Assembly (NCBI GenBank): GCA_951406725.2
Contig: OX597817.1
Location: 115,382,001 to 115,446,000, forward strand
Length of the DNA stretch: 64,000 nucleotides
Source: Octopus vulgaris
Lineage: Eukaryota
Reading direction: 5' to 3'
A program made the position numbers and the translations under genes. Positions 1,285 through 63,164 of this stretch are shown here, piece after piece (positions within the stretch are counted from its first letter, which is position 1; each line of letters starts with the position of its first letter). The notes under the pieces are model-generated. The model made no database searches and was not told where the DNA came from. It was given only the letters and a program-made list of their open reading frames with translations.

Positions 1285-4200
1285 CATTGGTTGCTTGGAG
1301 CTAAGAGTATGACTTGAAAAGCAGCCTGCAACCTCTGCACCAGGCAAACAACTAAAAAACAAGAAACCACCAGTCCTGCGGTTGACAAGCTGGAATGTCA
1401 GGACCAAGTGCCCTGGAATATTTGATGATCTACCCAGGGTTGAAGACACAAAGAAAACGGCCATCATTGACCGTGAACTAAAGAGGCTTAACTTAGACAT
1501 TGCTGGGCTACAAGAGACAAGACTTCCCTCAAACGGCAAACTCAAAAAACAGAATTTCACCTTATTTTGGTATGGAAGCGATCCAAAAGAACTTCGTCAG
1601 CATGGCGTTGGCTTTGCAGTGACAAACTCATTACTCTCCTCAATAGAACCACCATCAGGAGGCACTGAGCGTATCATCTCACTGCGCCTCTCGACTTCTT
1701 CTGGCTCAGTACATCTACTCAGCATCTATGCTCCCACTCTCTACAGCTCAGAGGAGACCAAGGACCAGTTCTACAAAGATCTCAACTGTGTCATAAAAAC
1801 TATACCAACAACTGAAAATATCTACCTTCTAGGGGACTTTAACGCTCGCGTGGGATCTGACCATGATTCGTGGCCCATTTGTGTTGGACACTTTAGTATT
1901 GGCAACATGAATGACAATGGTCAGAGACTACTCGAATTCTGCACATACCATAAACTGTGCATGACAAACACATTCTTTACCAACAAGCCATCCCACAAGG
2001 CATCTTGGAGACATCCAAGATCTCACCACTGGCATCAGCTGGATCTCATCATTACACGGAGATCCTTTCTGAATTCTGTTCTAATAACCCGCAGTTACCA
2101 CAGCTCGGATTGTGACACGGACCACTCACTTATTAGAAGTAGGGTGAGGATTCTGCCGAAAAAAGTCCATCGCTCCAAAAAAGTGGGCCGACTACGCATT
2201 AACACTGCCAGAACCTCGGACCCTAGACTGCGAAAATGTTTTGCTGCTTCTATCAATGTTGCCCTCAGTATCTGCCCAACCTCCTCTGCTGAAGGTAGGT
2301 GGAATTATATCGGGGAAGCTTTGTATACCACATCAATAGATACTTTCGGCATGAGAGAAAGGCAAAATCCAGATTGGTTCAATGCTGGGCTCTCAGAGCT
2401 GGAGCCAGTTATCGAAGCAAAGCGTGCAGCTCTGATGCAATGCAAGAGTGATTCTTCTACAAAGTCACTCGAAGAACTCAGAAGGGCAAGAAATAAAACC
2501 CAACTGACAGCCAGACGCTGTGCAAATAGGTATTGGCAGGAAATCTGTCAGAGTATCCAGTCAGCTGCTGACAGGAGCGACACCCGTGGGATGTATGCCG
2601 GTTTGAAGAAGGCCCTCGGTCCATACGCAACCAAGTCGGCCCCTCTGAAATCAACTCTTGGAGATCTCATCAGGGATCAAAGCAAGCAAATGGATAGATG
2701 GGTGGAGCACTACCAGGATCTCTACTCACGGGAGACTACAGTAGCTGAGGCCGCAATCGAGAGTGTCAAGATCTTGCCAGTCATGTGCGAACTTGACAGT
2801 CCGCCATCTATAGCAGAGCTCACCAAGGCTATTCACTCCCTAGCAAGTAACAAGGCTCCGGGAAAAGACGGCATCCCCTCAGAGATCATCAAAGCCGGCA
2901 AAAACACCATCCTGCTTCGGCACCTTCATGAGCTTCTGTGTCAGTGCTGGGAAGAGGGTACAGTCCCTCAGGATATGCGGGGTGCAAACATCATTACGCT
3001 TTACAAAAACAAAGGTGACCGTGGTGATTGTAACAATTACCGTGGAATATCTCTTCTAAGCACTGTTGGAAAGATCGTTGCTCGTGTTGTCCTGGCCAGG
3101 CTACAACTACTTGCTTCTCGAATCTATCCGGAATCGCAGTGTGGCTTTAGAAGAAGCAGATCAACTATTGATATGATGTTCTCCATACGCCAACATCAGA
3201 AGAAGTCCAGAAAGCAGAAAATGCCACCATATATGGCCTTCATTGATCTAACAAAGGCCTTTGACTCGGTAAGTAAAAAAGGCCCCTTCATCCTGCTCCA
3301 AAAATCGGATGTCCACCAAAGCTGCTGAGGATCATCAAGTCTTTCCATGATGATATGCAAGGCACCATACAGCACAATGGTTCAACATCAGCCGCCTTCC
3401 AAATGAAGAACGGGGTAAAGCAAGGTTGTGTCCTCTCTCCTACATTATTTGGCATTTTCTTCTCGTTCTTGCTCTCACATGCCTTTCAGACATCAGATGA
3501 TGGAGTGTTTCTGCACAGTAGAAGTGACGGGAAACTGTTCAATCCCTCACGCCTGCGTGCCAAGACCAAAATCAGAAACGTCCTGATCAAGGAGATGCTA
3601 TTTGCTGATGATGCCGCTCTGGCATCACACACAGAAGAAGCCCTCCAAAGGCTCATTAACTGTTTTGAGCAAGCATGTAACGACTTTGGCTTAGCTATCA
3701 GCCTTAAGAAGACCAACATCATGGGTCAGGCTACATCGGACATCCCAAACATACATATTGAAGACCACAGATTACAGGAGGTGGAGAAGTTTACCTGTCT
3801 TGGCTCTACCGTCACCTACAACCTATCCCTTGACGCTGAGCTCAATATACGCATTGGCAAGGCAGCTGCTGCGATGGCCCAACTCTCCAAACGGGCATGG
3901 GACAACAATAAGCTGACCAAGACCACGAAAATGAAGATCTACCAGGCATGTGTACTTAGCACTCTACTGTATGGAAGTGAGACTTGGACGCTATACACAC
4001 GCCAAGAGCGTCGCCTAAACATCTTTCACCTGCGCTGCCTCCGGAAAATCCTCCGCATCAAATGGTAGAATCATATTCCCAACAAGGATGTCATCAAGCA
4101 AGCAGGAATACCAAGCATGTTTGCACTCCTCACACAAAGACTTATGAGATGGCTTGGGCATGTTAGCCGTATGAAAGATGGCAGAATCCCCAAGGACATA

Positions 4201-4615
4201 CTCTGTAGAGAGCCTGCTAGGGGTACTAGGTCTGTGGGTAGACCGTTCTTACGTTACAAGGATGTTTGCAAAAGGGACATCAAGGCCTGCAACATCAATA
4301 TTAGCAGTTGGGAAGCAATTGCCAGCAACCGTGGAGATTGGCGACGTACCGTAAAAGAGGGAATACAAAGGAGTGACAGAGAGAGAGAGGAGAAATGAAA
4401 AGACAAGAAAAGACGTCAACAAGAAACTATGACAATACAACCAGCCAGGAATAGTCTTCACTACATTTGCGGTACCTGCCAGAGGGAGTGTTTGTCCAGG
4501 ATAGGACTACACAGCCACAGCAGGAAATGTATCAGGGCATGAAATGTAAAAGCCGGACTGGGCTATTTTATGCGCAACTCCATTGTCTCCCGAGACGAAA
4601 AGGATGCCAACCAAT
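1282..4615 (+). mobile_element. RTE-clade LINE, near full length, inserted in a (TA)n tract
   Basis: Single long APE+RT reading frame; short 3' UTR ending GGATGCCAACCAA; (TA)n at 1221-1281 and TATATA directly after 4615. Confidence 0.93.
1382..4542 (+). pseudogene. RTE ORF (apurinic endonuclease + reverse transcriptase + C-terminal Cys/His motif) with one frameshift and two in-frame stops
   Basis: APE motifs SWNVRT, GLQETR, LGDFNARVG, DTDH. RT motifs KAPGKDG, YRGISLLS, QCGFR, FIDLTKAFDSV, GVKQGCVLSP, LFADD. Frameshift near 3300 (restoring one A gives LQKIGCPPKLL). TAG at 4066-4068 and TGA at 4396-4398; the frame then continues to CGTCQRECLSRIGLHSHSRKC and stops at 4540-4542. Confidence 0.93.
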
Positions 4616-15459: not shown

Positions 15460-16280
15460 CTTTGTCAAACAGGATGCTTATATTAATTTTTTGACGGATA
15501 GGATGTTAGAAAAAAGAGTATGGTCATCGTGGAGTTTGCATATTAAGATGCGTTTGGAATTTTTCAAAAAAAGATTCTCTTTGTTGATTCTTTCTCGTGT
15601 AGTGATTTCGTCTTTATATTGGTAGAAGGGGAATATGTGAAATTTAGGATTTTTGTCTCTAGCGCACGAGCTATGTGACTACATAGTGGAATTTGACGGT
15701 ATTCTGGGATACTTTTCTGTTCGTTATGGACCGCTACTCTTCTACGTAAAGGAAGGCTCGTTTGTCCAACATAATTGTGTTGGGAACCGGCGCATGTGAG
15801 AACGTAGATGAGGTTCTCAGAGGAACAGGAGAAGTTGGTCTTGATTTTAAACTTCGTTCCTTGTTTGAAAGTAAATTCAGAACCTTCAAGTAGGAAGGGG
15901 CAGGTACCACAATTAAGGCGTGCACATTTTTAACTGATAGGGATGGATGTGGTGTGTGAAGTTTGGCATTTGTCAAGAGTTTTTCAAAGATTTATGTTGC
16001 CTTTTACATTTGAGGATTTTATGTGTATTGATAATATTATTTATTTTGGGTCTGTGGACAGTAAGGGGAGGTTTTGTATGGTCGTGGTGTATGCTTCGAT
16101 ATTTTGGGGGTTGTGGGTGTAAATGTATGGGAGTATTTTGTTGCTGTGTTGGGTAGTTTTCAGAGTATTATTGTCTAGTCTTTGGCACGATTTATTCCAT
16201 ACTCTATGAGAGTGGAGGGATATTGGCGTTATAATAGTGTTTTTTCGAGGTCTTGAAGGCGTATTGATATTTAGTCAACT
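15460..16280 (-). pseudogene. Penelope-like element (Neptune-like) fragment: Cys-rich linker + GIY-YIG endonuclease, frameshifted
   Basis: The minus strand reads CARLNCGTCPFLLEGSEFTFKQGTKFKIKTNFSCSSENLIYVLTCAGSQHNYVGQTSLPLRRR, clearly homologous to the ORF at 33521-34348. Confidence 0.85.
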
Positions 16281-21429: not shown

Positions 21430-22605
21430 TATAACTGGCAAATACGTTATTTACATTTGACGGATATTTGTTTTCACCTTCATCGCCTGTCTTGAGGAAA
21501 TTTCGAACCTGGGTTCTCATTCCTAAGGTATTTTTCGATGTTACTATTATTATGATTCTGATCACTGCTTGGAATCGAACTCTGAACCACTACGCCATAT
21601 GCTCGTGGACAATTATGGAGTGAATTGTAGGACTTATAAAGTTAATATTTTTCTATCCTTCCTTAATACTGGTTCCCATATGCTATTCATATCTGCACTC
21701 ATTCTGCTTAGGAGGTTGTTGTGTCCTATGCTGCTTCTTTCAGATTTCGTATTTTCCAGTGGTGTTCTCTGTCTATTATTTTAACTTCATCCTACAGGGG
21801 GAGGTGGTCTTCCTTTTTCCATACATGTTCAGCTATACCTGAGTTATCAATATCTCCTCGTGTCAAAGCTTTGCTATGTTCTTCTATCCTTATTTTGAGC
21901 GGGCGACATGTTCCGCCTTTATATAACCTACCACAGCTGCATGGAATAGAGTACACGCAGTTCTTATTCATATTCTTTTCTATTAGTGGTTTTACTCGAA
22001 GGAGATATTTGCGAGGTGTTATATTACTCTTGAATACGGTTATGATGTCATATGGGCCATATATCTTTTGTATCTTTTCGGAGAGGCCTTTCACATAGGA
22101 TAGACAGACTGTGGACAGTTTATTGGTTTTATCTTCTCTTTGCTTCATAATTGGAGTGGATAGTATGTTTTGTGGGTAGTTGTTAATAAATTGTTATTGA
22201 GCTTGATCATTTCTTCGTTATGTGTATCACAATTGCTACTTATATTCTTTGCCCGATGTTTTAGGTACTGAGTAATCCCTCTCTTTACAGTGTATGGATG
22301 GTGGGAATTGAAGTTGAGGCATCGTCCAGTGAAGGTCGGCTTGTGGTATACGGATGTCCTGAATCCATACTTGGTGCGTATTATTAATACATCCAGGAAT
22401 GCTAGCTGATTGTCTTTTTCCTGTATGGATGGCTTCATTGAGTTCACATGATCTAAAAATACTTGGACATCGTCCTGGTGGGGCCAGAGTATAAAGGTGT
22501 CATCTACATATCGCAGCCATAGGGTTGGTTTTAATGGTGTTGAACCTAAAGCCAAATTTTCAAAGTATTCCAATATAGAACTGGCAAATTGTTCACACAT
22601 CAAAG
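21430..22605 (-). mobile_element. Penelope-like element (Penelope/Poseidon-like), 5'-truncated, with degenerate RT + GIY-YIG
   Basis: RT: WLRYVDDTFILW, LAFLDVLI, VYHKPTFT, FNSHHP (22145-22603). Linker/EN: LSYVKGLSEKI, NCVYSIPCSCGRLYKGGTCRPLKIRIEEH, SGIAEHVW (21792-22148). Confidence 0.9.
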
Positions 22606-22801
22606 AGACGTAACGCTAATGTGACATCAGAAATAGAAACAGAATAAACTTAAAGTAAAACTAATGACATCAAATAAACACAGTTCTACTCTTCCGAAAT
22701 ATATTCCACGCGTTCGTGTTCTGTCGGGGTACAAGAAGCTCATATAAAACATTTGGAACACAATGATAAAAATAGTATTGTAATAATGATGATATTGTGC
22801 A

Positions 22802-31554: not shown

Positions 31555-31913
31555 AACGAAATGATATCCATTTGAGTTGGGAATGTTTATATTGATTTCT
31601 ACGAAGTTTTCCTGGGATGTCGAAGGTACAAGTAGAAAGCATGGATTTATATTAGTTCTTATAGCCTACATTGTTTTGGTTTTATGAAAAATATAATTAA
31701 ACACACAAATACATGTACGTATACCTCCATGGACGTATGTGTATGTGTATTTTTATATGTATGCGTGCGTCTTTATGTATATATGTGTGTGTATGTATAT
31801 ATATGTGTATATATATATATATATGTGCGTGTATATATGTATGTATATATAAATATATATATGTATATATATATATATATGTATGCATATATGTTTGTAT
31901 GTATATATGTGAG

Positions 31914-31988
<75 letters not shown>

Positions 31989-32159
31989 CTGAGTATATAA
32001 ATTTAAAAAAACACCTTTTATCAATTCAACAATGAAAAAATTAAATCATAACATTTACAAAAAATTACATCTAATAGAAAATTAAGAATAAGATAAAAAC
32101 ATATTCTAATGATAAAGTAATATGCAAAATAAAAAATAAAACGTATATATTTGGTAGAA

Positions 32160-32239
32160 TAACTACGCGCGTTTCGTGGCTAAATTTAAGAAATAAGAGT
32201 AAAATCAATTCAATATAAATATAGTCACTCCTCAGGTTA
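32160..32239 (-). ncRNA. Type I hammerhead ribozyme, canonical core
   Basis: Minus strand: TAAC (stem I) CTGAGGA GTGACTA..TAGCCAC (stem II) GAAAC GCGC GTA GTTA (stem I'). Palindromic stem III ACGCGCGT; GUA cleavage triplet. Confidence 0.85.
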
Positions 32240-32346
32240 AAGATAAAAACAATAACATAATTAAATAAATAATCTTGTAAAATACAAAATATCTTAAATA
32301 TATTCTTGCGTAAATAATTATTTTATTATTTTATTATTTCTCTCTT

Positions 32347-32429
32347 TAACCTGAAGAGTAACTATATTTATATTGAATTGATTTTACTGTTATCATTTCG
32401 TAAATATAGCCACGAAACACGTATAGTTA
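32347..32429 (+). ncRNA. Type I hammerhead ribozyme, inverted sister copy, partly mutated
   Basis: TAAC CTGAAGA GTAACTATATTTA..TAAATATAGCCAC GAAAC ACGT ATA GTTA. Confidence 0.75.
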
Positions 32430-32830
32430 TTCTACGAAATATATACGTTTTATTTATTATTTTGCACATTACTTAATCATTGGTATATGTCTTTACCTTA
32501 TATCTAATTTTCTATAAGATATATTTTTTTCTAAATGGTATAATTTAATTTTTTCATTGTTGAATTGATAAAAGGTAGTTTTTTTTCCATTTTATGTATG
32601 TATATATATATATATATATATTACATTTTGTGAAATTTGATTTGGTATTTCGAAATTGAATTTTTCCCTGTAAGTTTGAAATAATATTCCCTCTTATTAT
32701 TATGTATATATATGCATATATATGTATATATATGTATATATATATATATGCATATATATGTATATATATATATATATATATGTAAAAATAAGACAAAATA
32801 GAAAATGCTATAATAATTTTATAGTGAACA

Positions 32831-32875
32831 TTTCAGTACCGGTTTCGGTCATTTTGAGACCTTTTCAACTGTAAC
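32831..32875 (-). ncRNA. Minimal type I hammerhead with a U3:A8 covariant core
   Basis: Minus strand: GTTACAG TTGAAAA GGTC-tcaaaat-GACC GAAAC CG GTA CTGAAAT. The C3:G8 pair is replaced by U:A; palindromic stem III ACCGGT. Confidence 0.78.
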
Positions 32876-33228
32876 GATTAAATAATTAAAAAATTAAATT
32901 TAGAAAAATTAGAAGAAAAGTTTTTTTAAGGGAATATTTCTATAGTAGTGTTCAGATATAAGTGGCATTCTGCTTTTCTCTGACTCCCTTGTTTGCACTT
33001 GTGTGTTGTGAGTTCTTGGTAGGGTAGATGAAGAAGAAGAATGCTGATGTGGTGGAAAGGGGGTGGGAAAGTCTGGGAGTGCCCTGATGGCCGTATTTTG
33101 AATGGTCAGTGTCGACTGGCAGTCTCAGTTTAATTCAGGATAATGTTTCTATTAATAGGCTTGTTTATGGAATTTGCGTAGGTGTTATACTGAAAAAGTA
33201 TTAGTGATAAAGTTAAGAGGTGGAAGGT

Positions 33229-33420
33229 GAAGAAGAAGAAGAAGAAGAAGAAGAAGAAGAAGAAGAAGAAGAAGAAGAAGAAGAAGCAGGAGAAGGTGAC
33301 GATGTTGATGACGATGATGATGAAGAAGAAGAAGGAGAAGGAGAAGATGATGATGATGGTGGTGATGATGACGACGACGATGATGATGACGATAATGATG
33401 AAGAAGAAGAAGAAGAAAAA
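33229..33420. repeat. (GAA)n/(GAT)n trinucleotide tract inside the PLE 3' UTR
   Basis: Direct reading; source of the spurious poly-E/D and poly-K ORFs. Confidence 0.95.
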
Positions 33421-33520
33421 ACCGAGAAGGGAGAATATGAATGGGTGAAAGTTAGTAATGGATTCTTTGGAATGTAATATTTGTGTGTATATATTTCTTT
33501 TATTCTAAAGTTGAGGTATA

Positions 33521-34430
33521 TTAATTGTTTGTCGTAGACCCGTTAAGAAGTGGTCTGTATTTTCTAATAAAGAGATTTTCTTTACTTATTCGTTGTATCC
33601 AGGTTGTATCGTCCCTAAATTGATAGAGGGGGAAAATCCTGAAGCTTGGTGTTTTTTTGTTGGCGCAAGTATCTATGTGTTGGCTAAAAGCTATTTTTCT
33701 GTTTTGGGGAATTTTTATCTGGGATCTGTGCAGGGCCATTCGTATACGCAAACCATTTTTCGTTTGGCCTATGTACTGCTCTTGACACCCGGAGCAGGTT
33801 AGTGAGTATATTAGGTTCTCCGAAGCACATGTGAAGTTGCTTTTCACTGTGAACCGTTGTCCCTGTTTGAAGGAGAACTCTGATCCCTCAATTAGATAGT
33901 CGCATATCCCGCAATTGGGTCTTCCACATTTTTTTACTGTCGGCTTCTGTGTTGAAGAGTGTATTCGGGCTTGTGTTAGAAGACTTTTCATGGATTTAGG
34001 CTGTCTCTTGCTTTTTATGATCGTGTGTGTTTGGAGGATTGTGTTCATTCTGTGGTCTTTTTTTAAGAGGGGTATGTTGTGGAGGATGGTGCTGAAGGCT
34101 TCGTTATTGAGGGGGTTGTGTGTGGAGATGTATGGTAAGGCTTTTGGTTGTAAGTTTTTCTTTGATTTGGGATGTCTCAGTTCCTTGATGTTAAGTTGAA
34201 GGGCACGTTGAATGCACTTGTCAATTAGTGAAGGTGGATAGTTCCTGGTGACAAGGGTATCTTTTAGTTCTTGTAGTCGTGTGTCTCTGGTGTTTGCGTT
34301 AGAGACTATAGTGCATATCATTTTTGCTAGATTGAAGGGGATATTCATCCTGGTGTGTCTAGGGTGGCATGAATTGAATGGAAGGTATTGCTTAGAGTCT
34401 GTAGGCTTATAATATATGTCTGTTTCTATT
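33521..34430 (-). CDS. PLE polyprotein C-terminal part (RT thumb, Cys-rich linker, GIY-YIG endonuclease); open but 5'-truncated
   Basis: The frame extends upstream of the listed Met as [25 protein letters not shown]. Linker [11 protein letters not shown]; [21 protein letters not shown]...RMALH...FSQH...[13 protein letters not shown]. The RT catalytic core is absent. Confidence 0.85.
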
Positions 34431-34475
34431 GTATTATTGGCTTATTGTATTATATATATATATGTATATATATGC

Positions 34476-35893: not shown

Positions 35894-35949
<56 letters not shown>

Positions 35950-35979
35950 TGTATGCGTGTGTATAAGTTACCTATATAT

Positions 35980-36470
35980 ATGGGATCCGCCGACAAGATA
36001 ACATGTAATTACGATGAATCGTAACGTATCTATATAAATGGAAATAGCAAGTACAGTTATTTATATAAACAAGAGCAGACAAAGATAAGCAGGCTCATGT
36101 ATTAATGCATTTGTTATTACATATTTGTGAATATATTTGGGGATATATATTCTAAAGATTATCGAAGCGGTTCGTAACTTAAAAATTTAAGAGAAATAGT
36201 TAATGAGTATGTGACATTCTACATTAAATTATTTTATATATTTACAAAATAGTCGAAAGTAAATTATATAACGTTATCTAATCCTGCTGCGATATATAAT
36301 TACATTATTTTATAATTAACTAGCTTTATTAAGAGAAGATTTTTGAAATGATATGGTGTTTAAATTTTCCCTCTGCGAACTGTAACATCTGCTACTTCGT
36401 TAACATTCGACTAAATTACAGACTAATTAACTGTATTAAACTATCGTTTAATGAAATATTCGTATATGGA
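35980..36470 (+). repeat. Diverged direct repeat, copy 1 (partner at 41820-42298)
   Basis: Shared colinear blocks AGAGCAGACAAAGATAAGCA, AAATTATATAACGTTAT, TTTTATAATTAACTAGCTTTATTAAGAG, CTGCGAACTGTAACA and TTAAACTATCG. Confidence 0.88.
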
Positions 36471-41107: not shown

Positions 41108-41237
41108 ATAAACTTAGATAAACTTAGATATGTTTCGACCAATGATTGGTCCAGGTCTATAAATATATATATATATATGTATACGTTTAAATATTTGTTG
41201 TGCAAGATTTTTATGTGAAGTTGTGTGTTGAAACAGA

Positions 41238-41744
41238 TATTGTTGTATTTAGGAATGGTCATTTTGCCAGTTTAGCCAATAAAAAAAAAACGCACTATAT
41301 ATTTGGTGTTACTTTGCTTCAGTGTTATTTATTTTTTACATTAATCTTAATCTTATTTCGGCCAGAGTTCTTTCGTCACACTCCTGTGACCGCATCAGTG
41401 GTCCTTTGTTTTCTTCTTACTTATTTGTGTCTCTCCTTACTAACCGTCAGCCATTTTGTATTTCTATTGTTTGTCTTCATTTGCGCATGCTTATATCTCT
41501 ACATGCGTTTATGTTTATTTAGTGTGTGTGTGTGTGTGGGGGATGCCTGTAATATTTGTATCTTCTGTTTATATATGTTCACGTAATTTGTATTGTTTTT
41601 TTTTGTATTACAAATTACATGAACATATATAAACAGAAGATACAAATATTACAGATACAAATAATAACACTGAAGCAAAGTAACACCAAATATATAGTGC
41701 GTGTGTTTTTATTGGCTAAACAGGCAAAATGACCATTCCTAAAT

Positions 41745-41752
<8 letters not shown>
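41238..41752. repeat. Nested inverted-repeat element in TA-rich context, carrying a hammerhead variant
   Basis: Outer arms 41238-41330 and 41660-41752 (ATTGTTGTATTTAGGAATGGTCATTTTGCC...). Inner arms about 41547-41590 and 41606-41652. Confidence 0.9.
41360..41404 (-). ncRNA. Minimal type I hammerhead-like motif with a non-canonical position 9
   Basis: Minus strand: GGACCA CTGATGC g GTCACA-ggag-TGTGAC GAAAG aa CTC TGGCC. Confidence 0.65.
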
Positions 41753-41785
<33 letters not shown>

Positions 41786-41819
41786 TGTATGAGTGTGTGA
41801 GCGTGCGTGTGAAAATAGA

Positions 41820-42298
41820 TAAGGAATCCTCCTTAAAAATGAAATGTAACTATGAAGACATCTGCATTTATATAAATGTAGACGTGCTAACAATAAGCAC
41901 AGGTATTTATATATACTAGAGCAGACAAAGATAAGCACGCTAATGTTTTGGTGCATTTGTTCTTGCATATTTATGAAAATATTTGGGAATATTTTAAATG
42001 TTATCGGAGGTGTTCGAATCTGGTACTTAAAGAGTTACAAGAAATTTTTAATGAGTAAGCGCTTTATACATTAACGAAACAGTCAAATGCAAATTATATA
42101 ACGTTATATAATACTGTCGTCAAATATTATTATTTCATTTTATAATTAACTAGCTTTATTAAGAGGAGATTTATGAAACAATAATGTGTTCACATTTTCA
42201 CCCTGCGAACTGTAACACCTACTACTCTGTTAATATTCGAGTAAATTATAGATTAATTAGCTACCTTAAACTATCGCATAATGATATATTTGCATATG
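41820..42298 (+). repeat. Diverged direct repeat, copy 2
   Basis: Colinear with 35980-36470. Confidence 0.88.
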
Positions 42299-50353: not shown

Positions 50354-53300
50354 CTGTTAAAACAATTGCAACAAGATTTTATCTCTTTTATTCAAATGCT
50401 AAGAAATTAAAATTATGTACACGGTACTCTGAATGCCATTCATTAACTTATTCGAATTTATGTGACTGAATCATTTTCCTAAGTTTTTTATGTCTTAATT
50501 ATTTAAGTTTTAACATGATTTCGTAATTCTTTCTTTATATGTAAAAGTCTATGTCTACTATTAAACAATGCTGGGGTAGACTATACTCTGATGATGAGCT
50601 GTAACAGAGCAAAGTATGTACTTGACTATCCCTTGCATGCAAAAGTTGTTAAGGCTTGCCCTTGCTACGTCAACTGATATTGACTGATAAATATATATAA
50701 TTGCTTGAAATTTGCTTTAACATTTGTCACCAGATTTCTTTCTCACAGTAGAATGGACATTTCAGTTAAGATGCATGTATGTACAACAAGTTACTACATA
50801 CCCCACGAACTTATTCAGATCTTTAACATATATATAAAATTTAAGATTAATGAGGCTGACAATAGTTCTGGCGAATCAGGGATGACTAGTAGCTAAACAT
50901 CAACAAGACTTCTTTAATGAGCGGCGCAGAAAGTACCGAGCATATAAATAATTTAAATAACTGAAATTTCCTTCGCTTTTGAATAAATGAAATAAAATCT
51001 TGTCGCATGTGTTAAGAAGTGTTAAATAAAATGAGAGTTAATTTCTAAATTTAAAAATTAATCTTTAACAGCTAGCTGGGACGTGGTTGTCATCTGCAAT
51101 TATACCATCAAGCGAACACCAGAAAAATTTTTAAATACTTTCGAATAAAACATGAAATATAAGGTTTCTGAATGCTCAGATTACAGTCAACTTCCATTGT
51201 TTGCAACTCAACAAGATTTGCAAAGCACTCATACTTAGCATTCTATGATTAAATCGGTTCTGCTCTAGATAATCCTCTTCTTATACTAGCTGCCAATTTT
51301 CCTTCACATTCAAAACTCACGCACCCATCACAATGTTTCCAAAAACCGTTCCTCTCAAGTTGATTTCTATGGCAGCAAGGCTTCAGTCGTTAATACTTGA
51401 AATATGTTCAAGCAGTTTGCTTCAGTACTAGTTAAAAAAAATGTCAGTATTTCCTTCTCTACAAAACCAGCAAACTGACTAATAAAAGAAACCTCCATGA
51501 ATCTTTCAAATACTAGCGAATCACCTGTAATAATATGTTCGCCTAAATCTTTTTTTAGTAAAAGCTTTTAGGACCCTATTGAAAGAGAGAGATATAGGGA
51601 AAGGAAAACAAAGGAATTATACTTTAAATAAATATGTTCATATGTGTGTTGCAATGATGAGAGGAGAGGCGGTGTATCAGATAAATTATAGATATAGATA
51701 TAAGTGACGTGTCATTTTTGGATGATATATTAGGTTTCATAATTCGTAGCAGGTATGAAGATATGCGAACAGCAGTGTGATTCGATTTGCATTTGGTCTT
51801 TTCCAGTCCTCAGAAAGTGTTCAAGATTTCAATATTAACATCTTTCGCCGCAATGTATATATTAGTTTTTGCCCAAATTATCATAAGGCATTGTCAGGGA
51901 TTGCGAAGCATAGATATCTATGGATTTAAGGCTTGCAGCTACCAGCTAGATGAACCACAAGTTTATACAATTTTTGAGATAGTGAACAGAAAATATATCT
52001 AAAAAGATCATCAAAACATCAAATTTGTTTGAAAGTTCTAAGGTTACAATTAGAAAAATTTGCCAAAAATTTACTTAAAAACGGGATTTCACAATTAAAG
52101 TTATATCTTTCAAGTCTTCAAATATTCCTTTGAAAGCGGAGAAAAATGTTATTTCGTTGATATATGTTTTATTGCAGTTGAAAAGGTCAGCTAGTCTGAA
52201 ATGAAGTATGTTTTTGATAGCTGTAAATACAGTGCAGATTTCGTGTGAATTATCTAAACTATATATTGATGATGGCTTGTATGCATGCCGCTAATAAAGC
52301 GTAAATACTAGCGTCAAGAAATTGTGTAAGGTTACCAATATCAGTCAATATGTTGTTTCTAAAACTTTCAGACACATTCCTAAATGGAAGACAGAATGGA
52401 AAATCAAAATATTGGTCCGATACAAAGAAATAGATGAAGTGGGTGTTAAAAGTGTTGGTGTACACAAACAAGGGGCAATATCACAATAATCTTACGACAT
52501 AATAAATGAGAGCAAGATAGCACCTATCGAGAGAAAACTTTGCAAAAAGTCTCTGGTATGAAACAGAGCTAAATGTTTTCTTTTTATCAACAGTATCACC
52601 TTCGATTTTATATATATATATATATTCTTAATAGAAGAAACTCACCGGCGATGATCTTGTAGAGAACAAGAGAGAGAGAAAGAGAGATGGGGAGTAACAG
52701 AGAGTGTGCTTTTTATAATCTAGAGACCTCAATGTAATTTGCATTGCTGTACGCTGGGGAACAAAACTGACATATAGCAAACGTAGAAACTCAAATTAAT
52801 ATTTAAATGACTTATCGTGCTGTGTAATGGTATACCAAAAAGCTATAGAATTCCTAGAAACATAAAATACTTCAAAATTTTGGCTTACATGTACAAAAAT
52901 GAGATCTACTTAAGATTTCAAATAATTTACCATTTATCCAGGATCTTCCAAGCAATCACTTGGATAAAATATTGATAAAAAAACGTAACATGAATTTAGA
53001 TTTATATTAGTAATTATATTTCAGAAGCTGCTAAAGAAGATAAAGTAGATTTTGAAGACTTAACAGAGAAGAAATCTTTAATTGTGAAATCACACTATTT
53101 CGTTCTTAAGTAAATTTTAGGTAATGTAACTTTAAAACTTTCAAACAAATCTGAAGTTTAGATTATCTTTTTAAACAAATTTTCGTTTCCTTTTCTCTGA
53201 AACTGTGTAAACTTCTGGTTCACCTAGCAACACAAATTTATACATGCATTTAATGTGACTGCAGGTTAAAACATAAATATATTAATACTGGTATTTTACT

Positions 53301-60047: not shown

Positions 60048-60079
<32 letters not shown>

Positions 60080-60082
<3 letters not shown>

Positions 60083-61519
60083 AGATAAGAAAATGGAGAA
60101 ATACATCTAAATCAAATATCAATTACACGATAATACTCAATCACATACTTTGTTAAACCACCACATAAGAGACTGTAGGGTTACATATAAAAAGCAGAAC
60201 AAATCAGTGTACATAAAGGAATGTACATAAAAAAGTGTACATAAAAGAGTAATAATGTATAATAAGTAGAATATATATAAACGAGAATATAAATATAAGT
60301 AAATATAAATATAAGTATAGATTACATCTTACAGCTGTTTCGGCCATGTAGATAAGTATTCTCACTTTACCAATATTAGCCTTTTATGGTAGGTCAATAT
60401 ATAGAGACATTTACAAAAATATCATAAGGCCTCTTCGGAGATTATGATATTTAAATCAGTCTACATATATATCCACATGGGTGTGGGTACATACCCATAA
60501 TACAACATATACATATACATATGAGTGCATATACTCACACTCCTATACATATAAAAATATACATATACATAATGATATAAATAAATAATATAAATTAATA
60601 AACATATATATGTTCCACATTCAACGTCTCAGTTTTTCGACTTAATATTGTGATAATAAACATACACATATTAGTACCTAGATGCAAATATACATAGGCA
60701 ATAGTACATTATATTACTTCATACTAATTTCTAAAGTGTCATTGAAGTTAGCATCATTATCGTTGTCAATACAATAAATATTACTATTATTATCATTCAT
60801 AATATTATTAATAACGCTTACATTAGGATCCAGATTGGCAAATAAGTATGTCCTGGTTCCAGTTAGTAATTTTCCTTATGACATAAATACACTATTGGAT
60901 TTGAATTTAAAATTATCATTATCTTCCCCATGGTTGGTCCATTGTGAACCGCCCGACCTCTACCACACCGCACAAGCAAAACATACACATCCAAATCTAA
61001 CCCTAAACCCACACATGCACACAGAAACTCACACACACACATGCACACACACATGAATACACCCCTACACATCGCCACACTTTCACTGAAATGCAGAGTG
61101 CATGTCTGTCATCGCATGGCTTATAGACAAATCAGTACAGGCAGCAGTGTCTAACACTAACACACATACTCACACGCACATCCGCATATACATATATACA
61201 TATCCAAATATGCACCTGCGTGCTCTTGTGTGTAATAAAAACATACATCCGTACATCCACCCACGATCATACCTATATGTACAAAAACATACATACGTCC
61301 ATATACACATTTTCACACACCCCGACACCTCAACTCACATCTTCTAAATCTTAAATTAAAATATATGTCTGCCCATCCAAAGACGTATATATACATACAC
61401 AAAAAGTAAACAGAAGTTACTATTAATTAGATATAAGTTCATTAATTATAAATTAAATTAATTATAGATTAGTAAGTGCCAGATAAACAAATTTAAATAA
61501 TTAAATAAATAAATATAAA

Positions 61520-61565
<46 letters not shown>

Positions 61566-61716
61566 GCTAAAGTATTACTGGTAGAAGAATTAGATGTTAT
61601 TTAAATCTAGAGAAAGTGTACGCCAATATGTGGTGGCTTAATAACGTATGTGATTGAGTATTATCGTGTAATTGCTTTTTGATTTAGATGTATTTCTCTA
61701 TTTTCTTATCTTGTAT
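60080..61716. mobile_element. ~1.6-kb non-coding segment with ~90-bp inverted ends and an internal hammerhead
   Basis: TACAAGATAAGAAAATGGAGAAATACATCTAAATCAAA...CCACCACATA (60080-60168) is the reverse complement of 61627-61716. A TA tract lies on the left; HHR at 60326-60442. Confidence 0.7.
60326..60442 (-). ncRNA. Type I hammerhead with a large loop 2 and a U4C change
   Basis: Minus strand: ATCT CCGAAGA GGCC [~85 nt] GGCC GAAAC AGCT GTA AGAT. Palindromic stem III ACAGCTGT. Confidence 0.7.
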
Positions 61717-62181: not shown

Positions 62182-62444
62182 TTACTTGGAAATGGATAGG
62201 TCTCTTTCAATTACATAGTAAATAAAATATAATATAACATGTATATATAATATTGAATAAAAGTTTCAAAAAAGTTCTATTTTTAATTAGTATCAATAGT
62301 GAAGATTATTATCAATAACCACATTATAATTAATTCATAACTATAAGCCCATAATGTGGTTATTGACATTTAAAAGTATATTCTCGGCATATTTGGCATA
62401 GAAAATTTTTTTCTTTCGCCCTTATTTATGAGTTGTTTATATAT

Positions 62445-62615
62445 ATATCTGTAATATAACATGTGACAATTATTTGGTTTCCATAATAAAACTCCGACTT
62501 TCGGATGTCGGGCGGAAACCTGGACCGGAATCTCTTCAGGTTTCCACCCCGACATCCGAAACTCGGAAGTATTATTATGGCAACCGAATAATTGTCACAG
62601 ATTGTATTACATATA
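62445..62615. repeat. ~80-bp-arm hairpin; each arm contains the 3' half of a hammerhead
   Basis: TGTGACAATTATTTGGTTTCCATAATAA..TTTCGGATGTCGGGCGGAAACCTG pairs with CAGGTTTCCACCCCGACATCCGAAA..TTATTATGGCAACCGAATAATTGTCACA. The right arm reads GAAAC-TCGGAA-GTA. Confidence 0.88.
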
Positions 62616-62821
62616 AATTCCTATGTTTACATAATATCGAGGTTTCTTTCATTATTTTGTAATCTTACCGTTACTATTAATAATACATTGTATATATATA
62701 TATATTCTTTACAGATTTAGAGTAAAAATTATTAATTTAATAAACTAACCAATTTTACCAAGTAGTTTTCGGCATGGAAAAGAATCATATTCGGTAAAAA
62801 CTTATATAAAAAGTTTTTTTT

Positions 62822-63155
62822 CATATATAATTATAGCAATAATTAAGGGTTTAGCAACAAGTTGCTTGACCATATACCGAAAATTTTAGAAATAGCAGCC
62901 AAAAGACTGCTATTTATTTTTTTTACAAAATATGTCTTCACAGATAACAATATTTGTAACGCACATAGGCAAAAAGAAGACTGCTTGATTTCATTATTTT
63001 TCTTCTTTTTGCCCATGTGAGTTACAAATATTGTTATCTGGGAAGACATATTTTGTAGAAAAAAGAAATAACTGTCTTTTGGCTGCTATTTCTAAAATCT
63101 TCGGTATGTGGTCAATCAACTTGTTGCTAAACCCTTAATTATTGTTATAAATATA
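62822..63155. repeat. Near-perfect fold-back with ~155-bp arms and a ~20-bp spacer
   Basis: AATAATTAAGGGTTTAGCAACAAGTTG...GGCAAAAAGAAGA versus TCTTCTTTTTGCC...CAACTTGTTGCTAAACCCTTAATTATT; TA-rich ends. Confidence 0.93.
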
Positions 63156-63164
63156 TATAGATAT

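Follow-up and report, generated by a model that had tools for sequence, protein, structure and literature searches.

The inverted repeat at 32005-32587 very probably consists of two 5'-shortened copies of a hammerhead-bearing repeat that lie head to head in (TA)n, likely as a single minimal insertion that the reverse transcriptase (RT) and GIY-YIG endonuclease of a Penelope-like element (PLE) produced. It is most likely an ordinary, ageing PLE footprint and not a purpose-built ribozyme switch. The window, i.e., the whole stretch of 64,000 nucleotides from Octopus vulgaris that was analysed, is animal-like DNA, rich in microsatellites, in which several PLE remnants occur. The features discussed below are:

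31770..31993, no strand: left flank, (TA)n/(TG)n microsatellite, the likely target (in three organisms, the 3' ends of the family border on (TA)n).
31994..32284 (core match 32005-32284), minus strand: left arm, a 5'-truncated repeat copy with its 3' end outward (alignment, contigs).
32160..32239, minus strand: type I hammerhead with intact core, helix I of 4 bp, helix II paired at 11/13, loop 3 palindrome ACGCGCGU, predicted cut after GUA (motif descriptor, alignment, folding).
32285..32300, no strand: head-to-head junction, an AT-rich spacer absent from most family copies (alignment, contig depth).
32301..32587, plus strand: right arm, a second 5'-truncated copy with its 3' end outward (alignment, contigs).
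32347..32429, plus strand: decayed hammerhead, in which helix III and the loop-3 palindrome are disrupted by G16.2-to-A (32423), and one helix II pair is lost through G-to-A at 32360 (alignment, contigs, folding).
32593..32621, no strand: right flank, (TA)n microsatellite (sequence).
32790..34441, minus strand: separate 5'-truncated PLE with thumb, CX4CxxC linker and GIY-YIG (ORF 34441-33521; ORF, profile match, descriptor).

The minus arm (32005-32284) and the plus arm (32301-32587) are separated by a 16-nt AT spacer and align over 291 columns with 252 identities, 39 mismatches and 7 gap columns. The local alignment score of 403 compares with a maximum of 87 in 300 shuffles, which bears out the 600-bp palindrome described in the earlier note. 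The whole palindrome is predicted to fold at -288 and -254 kcal/mol; the hairpin at -288 kcal/mol has a z of -37, and none of 100 shuffles was equally stable. At their outer ends, both arms pass into (TA)n or (TG)n microsatellite, and these ends correspond to within about 10 nt; the inner break points are at about -120 and -124 relative to the ribozyme cut. A TSD or a 30-40-nt tail is unreadable here, the flanks being microsatellite and the right end being masked in the contig mapping.

The left arm carries on the minus strand the sequence UAAC CUGAGGA G..C GAAAC GCGC GUA/GUUA, with the core starting from 32235 and the predicted cut between 32164 and 32163. All core elements are present (C3-A9, G12-A14, pairs 10.1-11.1, 15.1-16.1 and 15.2-16.2, and an NUH triplet), and the canonical hammerhead proposed earlier for this strand, with a cut at about 32164, thus stands in both respects. 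A strict descriptor with palindromic loop 3 has three matches in the window, none in 59 of 60 shuffled sequences and one in the remaining shuffle. Rfam gave no hammerhead match at the palindrome, either at the gathering score or up to an E of 10, and returned only microsatellite noise. The right-arm core starts from 32351 on the plus strand and reads GAAAC ACGU AUA. The plus-strand sister of the earlier note is therefore present, but its helix III is broken: pair 15.2-16.2 is lost, and the copy fails the strict descriptor.

At position 4 of helix II, an A faces C in each of the arms (GTGA.. and GTAA..), and each arm pairs at 11 of 13 positions. The perfect 13-bp stem II that had been reconstructed by combining the arms was not recovered, as the best mix read from the sequence reaches 12/13 with A opposite C in both. 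The letter that would complete it (GTGG) makes up 26-65% of family depth at 32225, so the perfect stem occurs in the family and is absent from the palindrome locus. Decay of the right loop 3 at CpG sites was considered and ruled out, since the family itself has ACGU and it is the left arm that deviates. The left loop 3 differs from the family form by two changes that preserve the palindrome (ACGU to GCGC), each found in 2% of family depth or less; this double change hints at a selected template variant.

The family was viewed through contigs of four of the 24 listed runs, mapped to 31990-32700 at 80% likeness. The fourth of these runs, X15, is presumed to be RNA, and its 50 contigs carry no weight on expression. 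The three DNA runs (organisms A, B, and C) have 1844, 2103, and 1422 mapped contigs, with summed depth peaking in the 3' tail at 257k, 439k, and 72k, respectively; the listed single long pieces have depths of 5-64. Summed contig depth is no copy number, and thousands of copies is meant as an order of magnitude. Depth drops about tenfold at the 5' half of the core and by another tenfold just upstream. At 32278-32301, beside the centre, it is 839, 5070, and 741, which is 90- to 300-fold below the tail; part of the centre (32312-32341) is masked. In each of the three DNA runs, loose ends past the family 3' end, at 31994/32005, consist of (TA)n. Together with the depth gradient and 22 junction ends, they indicate a family with a common 3' end and variable 5' truncation.

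The family majority reads GAAAC ACGU GUC, i.e., a palindromic loop 3 and a canonical triplet. Among the 40 variant rows listed, N7 is the sole varying position of the core, and helix I shows a change from A-U to G-U. The earlier note had tied its ribozyme to conservation of the core among genomic copies, and in these rows the core is kept except at N7; this constancy makes the ribozyme a feature of the family. A motif search of paper texts and two supplements, in which line breaks can split motifs, found no printed record of the family, and the motif was not found in the available part of the PMC8557442 supplement. Repeat libraries may well hold the family.

Other head-to-head junctions are found among the mapped contigs. 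In the rows listed, 11 further joints (7 + 4, from two joint lists) skip the centre and connect an antisense with a sense piece. The 22 ends of these joints range between -91 and +136 relative to the cut, with TA-rich filler at the joints. Of the seven joints of the first list, five have sides as short as 23-25 letters, in AT-rich sequence; run X3 supplies most of the joints, and each is weak alone. The joint 32194 to 32539 recurs in each of the three DNA runs, on sides of 30-45. The count leaves out two deletions within an arm and a single backward joint. Six opposite-strand joints were discarded, five of them lying at mirrored places as an artefact of the palindromic reference.

These data bear on whether the palindrome was copied as a unit. 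A MITE or foldback DNA transposon that moved whole, bounded by long terminal inverted repeats, would have the long inverted arms, the TA flanks and the high copy number, and the junction 32028 to 32439, at depth 1023 in one run, indicates that some inverted forms were multiplied. However, a centre 90- to 300-fold under the tail and differing junctions, with other break points and unequal arms, count against a unit copied whole, and the conserved part is an RNA motif. This origin is extremely improbable and already largely refuted. In the form concerned, from run X3, an inverted 3' tip of 24 nt is joined to a copy that begins at 32439, and the depth of this joint is that of an inverted form that has apparently been multiplied.

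An arm could also represent one non-LTR retrozyme or hammerhead SINE unit, spread through cleaved or circular RNA, with two copies brought together by inversion or nested insertion. The unit is short and AT-rich, has thousands of copies and no linked ORF, and carries a type I hammerhead whose loop 3 is palindromic; retrozymes are reported as PLE derivatives in the accessible text of 10.64898/2026.07.22.740005. Yet head-to-tail joints are absent both at the locus and among the 15 + 12 joint rows listed, the loose 3' ends enter (TA)n and not a next unit, the 5' ends vary, and retrozymes are described as tandem arrays (PMC7229834, in the part available). A retrozyme or SINE origin is highly improbable, though somewhat less so than a DNA transposon.

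Fourteen of the 22 junction ends are close to the cut, at most 2 nt before it or 28 nt past it, and two of these are on the first base past it (+1). Short copies of the family may have been reverse-transcribed from hammerhead-cut RNA, which is considered unlikely. The pile-up is explained as easily by microhomology with the (TA)n target (TATATA, +14 to +20), 11 loose ends at 32439 being (TA)n, and by alignment stops at arm mismatches next to the cut. If such copying did occur, thousands of palindromic stumps would be an in vivo cleavage record of a PLE hammerhead, from which the priming of the inverted half could be read.

The preferred explanation, a minimal PLE insertion, would proceed in the following way. 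The endonuclease would nick AT-rich (TA)n DNA, and reverse transcription would start from the fixed 3' end of the family and terminate prematurely, some 120 nt upstream of the ribozyme cut. The same or a sister RNA would yield another copy in inverted orientation, by priming from the other strand or by fold-back, and the two 5' ends would be joined across the 16-nt AT spacer. Both arms would then drift by point mutation to the 13% difference. The hammerheads would be passengers of the terminal repeat of the element, and the family form (GAAAC ACGU GUC) would act as a dimer via its palindromic loop 3. The repeat may be the terminus of an autonomous PLE or belong to a non-autonomous derivative. 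Membership of the palindrome family in PLEs is inferred. High copy in A, B, and C, the (TA)n 3' ends, the 11 varied joints and the fall in depth were counted for it, as were the PLE ORF with its own hammerhead in the same window, a hammerhead copy with an inverted tip (60078-61716), and a metagenome relative of the ORF in which RT and GIY-YIG are followed by a minimal hammerhead. Counted against it were the different hammerhead and tail of the neighbouring PLE, the lack of an Rfam score and the five polymorphic sites at which the arms differ. No RT-GIY-YIG ORF was linked to the palindrome family by contig or locus in the mapped run contigs, whose letters are given up to 30 nt, in the window or in the motif scans; the scans gave 0 matches each in metagenome, viral, and prokaryote collections.

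The neighbouring PLE is represented by the minus-strand ORF 34441-33521, which has a GIY-YIG match below the Pfam cut-off (E 0.0013) and is 33% identical to the metagenome ORF with RT and GIY-YIG motifs and a minimal hammerhead after it. Its own U3-A8 hammerhead (32871-32834; UUGAAAA GGUC..GACC GAAAC CG GUA) is located 650 nt past the ORF stop. This hammerhead directly follows a pyrimidine tract and AG, maybe an intron end, and is followed by a short tail and (TA)n. The palindrome as the end of this PLE was considered and rejected, since that PLE has its own hammerhead and tail. In blastn, only short low-complexity matches were found between it and the palindrome arms, which places it in another family. 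In the metagenome, a PLE ORF (L002 82-2397 and 2467-2505; L001 1475-1513) has a minimal hammerhead 75 nt past its stop. The hammerhead, a possible intron and a second reading-frame start likely make this PLE a partial tandem.

Further repeats occur in the window. A long hammerhead copy at 60078-61716 (minus) has a 90-nt inverted tip that is 93% alike and (TA)n at its left end; its hammerhead, near 60326-60442, has U4-to-C, about 90 nt of helix II and loop, and a palindromic AGCU loop 3. Two near-perfect palindromes with TA-rich ends are found at 62443-62618 (81%) and 62823-63158 (89%), the former with CUGAAGA and GAAA GUC pieces and no full hammerhead. Inverted pairs lie at 41237-41754, 41547-41654, and 51945-53228, one nested in another, and 41751-42298 is 73% like 35907-36468. 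Decayed PLE ORF fragments at 15544-16261 and 21792-22615 (both minus) are 44% and 34% identical to the neighbouring PLE protein, and no hammerhead was found after either. A frameshifted non-LTR retrotransposon with AP endonuclease and RT, which we take to be RTE-like, occupies 1313-4398 (plus).

Between the arms, which differ by 13%, there are 19 transitions and 20 transversions. Differences fall in 6/53 columns of core and stems, 2/27 of loop 2, 17/155 of the tail, and 11/45 of the upstream part. They are as frequent in the ribozyme as in the tail, so selection on the hairpin or the ribozymes is not seen. From near-fixed family sites, the left arm departs at seven and the right at six, among the rows listed. 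Both arms carry C17-to-A at a site where 92-96% of family depth is C; they share alleles at six further polymorphic family sites and differ at five. The earlier note had offered age or two different templates for the divergence, and had suggested comparing the arms with genomic copies for signs of different subfamilies. The arms do not appear closer to different subfamilies, and the shared rare allele and the near-equal departures speak for age within one sub-lineage. As read from these alleles, the pattern favours one sub-lineage with neutral ageing of about 6-7% per arm. Two templates of that sub-lineage, one a sister of the other, are possible.

As monomers, neither ribozyme is predicted to favour the hammerhead fold. 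Folded alone, the left region reaches -2.7 kcal/mol as a hammerhead vs. -10.8 at best, and the right region +1.6 vs. -17.4, i.e., penalties of 8 and 19 kcal/mol, with helix II pair probabilities of at most 0.10 and 0.20, respectively. In each arm, the bases past the cut form a competing helix with G8, A9 and the 5' strand of helix II. This "off" helix involves 32355-32365 with 32422-32432 in the right arm and 32231-32225 with 32163-32157 in the left. It is lengthened by the shared C17-to-A and by two right-arm changes, the right arm having a z of -2.2 (5/200 shuffles). Homodimer energies of the loop-3 8-mer are -13.3 (left), -10.3 (family form), and -3.3 kcal/mol (right), and the left-right pair has -3.2 kcal/mol. 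In the fold of the full palindrome, the hammerhead pair probability is about 1e-13.

The arms point outward, and the antisense arm would thus be transcribed first, giving one sense ribozyme per read-through RNA and no dimer in cis. According to these fold predictions, such RNA from the locus is not expected to cut. The claim that transcripts of either direction hold one sense ribozyme and a hairpin that can bury it agrees with the folding. Its extension to a designed sequestering or small-RNA device is unsupported, the form being usual for PLEs, the centre private to the locus, and no selection seen. A locus kept as a functional RNA device, i.e., a ribozyme-locking hairpin or a small-RNA source, would account for the very stable hairpin and the ribozyme buried in the predicted fold. 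The differences between arms, through their 19 transitions, give 13 G-U pairs in minus-strand RNA vs. six in plus-strand RNA, a weak skew, and antisense small RNAs from PLE copies elsewhere appear in the part of PMC3846280 available. However, the arms differ by 13%, including 20 transversions, the ribozyme of the right arm is broken, the locus is spanned by no listed contig of any run, and similar inverted pairs recur within the window. Such a function is highly improbable.

As a single locus, the palindrome has little weight, being an old, partly broken example of an insertion form already described. The family is large, present in at least three organisms, and many of its copies seemingly have inverted junctions. 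It offers a natural data set on the priming of the head-to-head half and on template cutting by the hammerhead in vivo. Caution is also due, as palindromes of this kind can readily be mistaken for MITEs or for designed RNA switches. The literature search for cephalopod PLE hammerheads or palindromes returned general papers only, and the comparisons that follow refer to the available parts of the papers cited.

Inverted pLTRs are described in PLEs, with head-to-head palindromic junctions as the most frequent type (PMC3846280). A copy that is inverted and 5'-truncated frequently lies at the PLE 5' end, and (TA)n is a preferred target (PMC8557442). Both target strands were nicked and extended, and ribozyme cleavage depended on protein, with no reads ending at the cut (PMC11167929). 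The palindrome resembles the inverted pLTRs of EN+ PLEs (Arkhipova et al. 2013, PMC3846280; Craig et al. 2021, PMC8557442) in its truncated copies placed 5' to 5', outward fixed 3' ends, variable breaks and (TA)n target. It differs from them in having neither an ORF nor a direct pLTR pair, in its arms of equal length, and in the unreadable TSD and 30-40-nt tail.

PLE hammerheads have a long helix II, a short helix I and a palindromic loop 3; they are dimer-dependent and of low activity, and opposite-strand pairs occur 100-700 bp apart (Cervera and de la Pena 2014, PMC4209133). The hammerheads of the palindrome family are likewise type I, with helix I of 4 bp, long helix II, G10.1-C11.1, palindromic loop 3 and variable N7. 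In contrast to those published, they have a longer helix II (13 bp), an AU loop of 27-30 nt, and no extra base between 9 and 10.1. Metazoan non-LTR retrozymes (PMC7229834; 10.64898/2026.07.22.740005) are also short, low-GC, non-coding and high-copy, with a type I hammerhead. They are defined in both sources as tandem arrays, and these head-to-tail arrays make circular RNA, whereas the palindrome is an inverted pair with ragged 5' ends.
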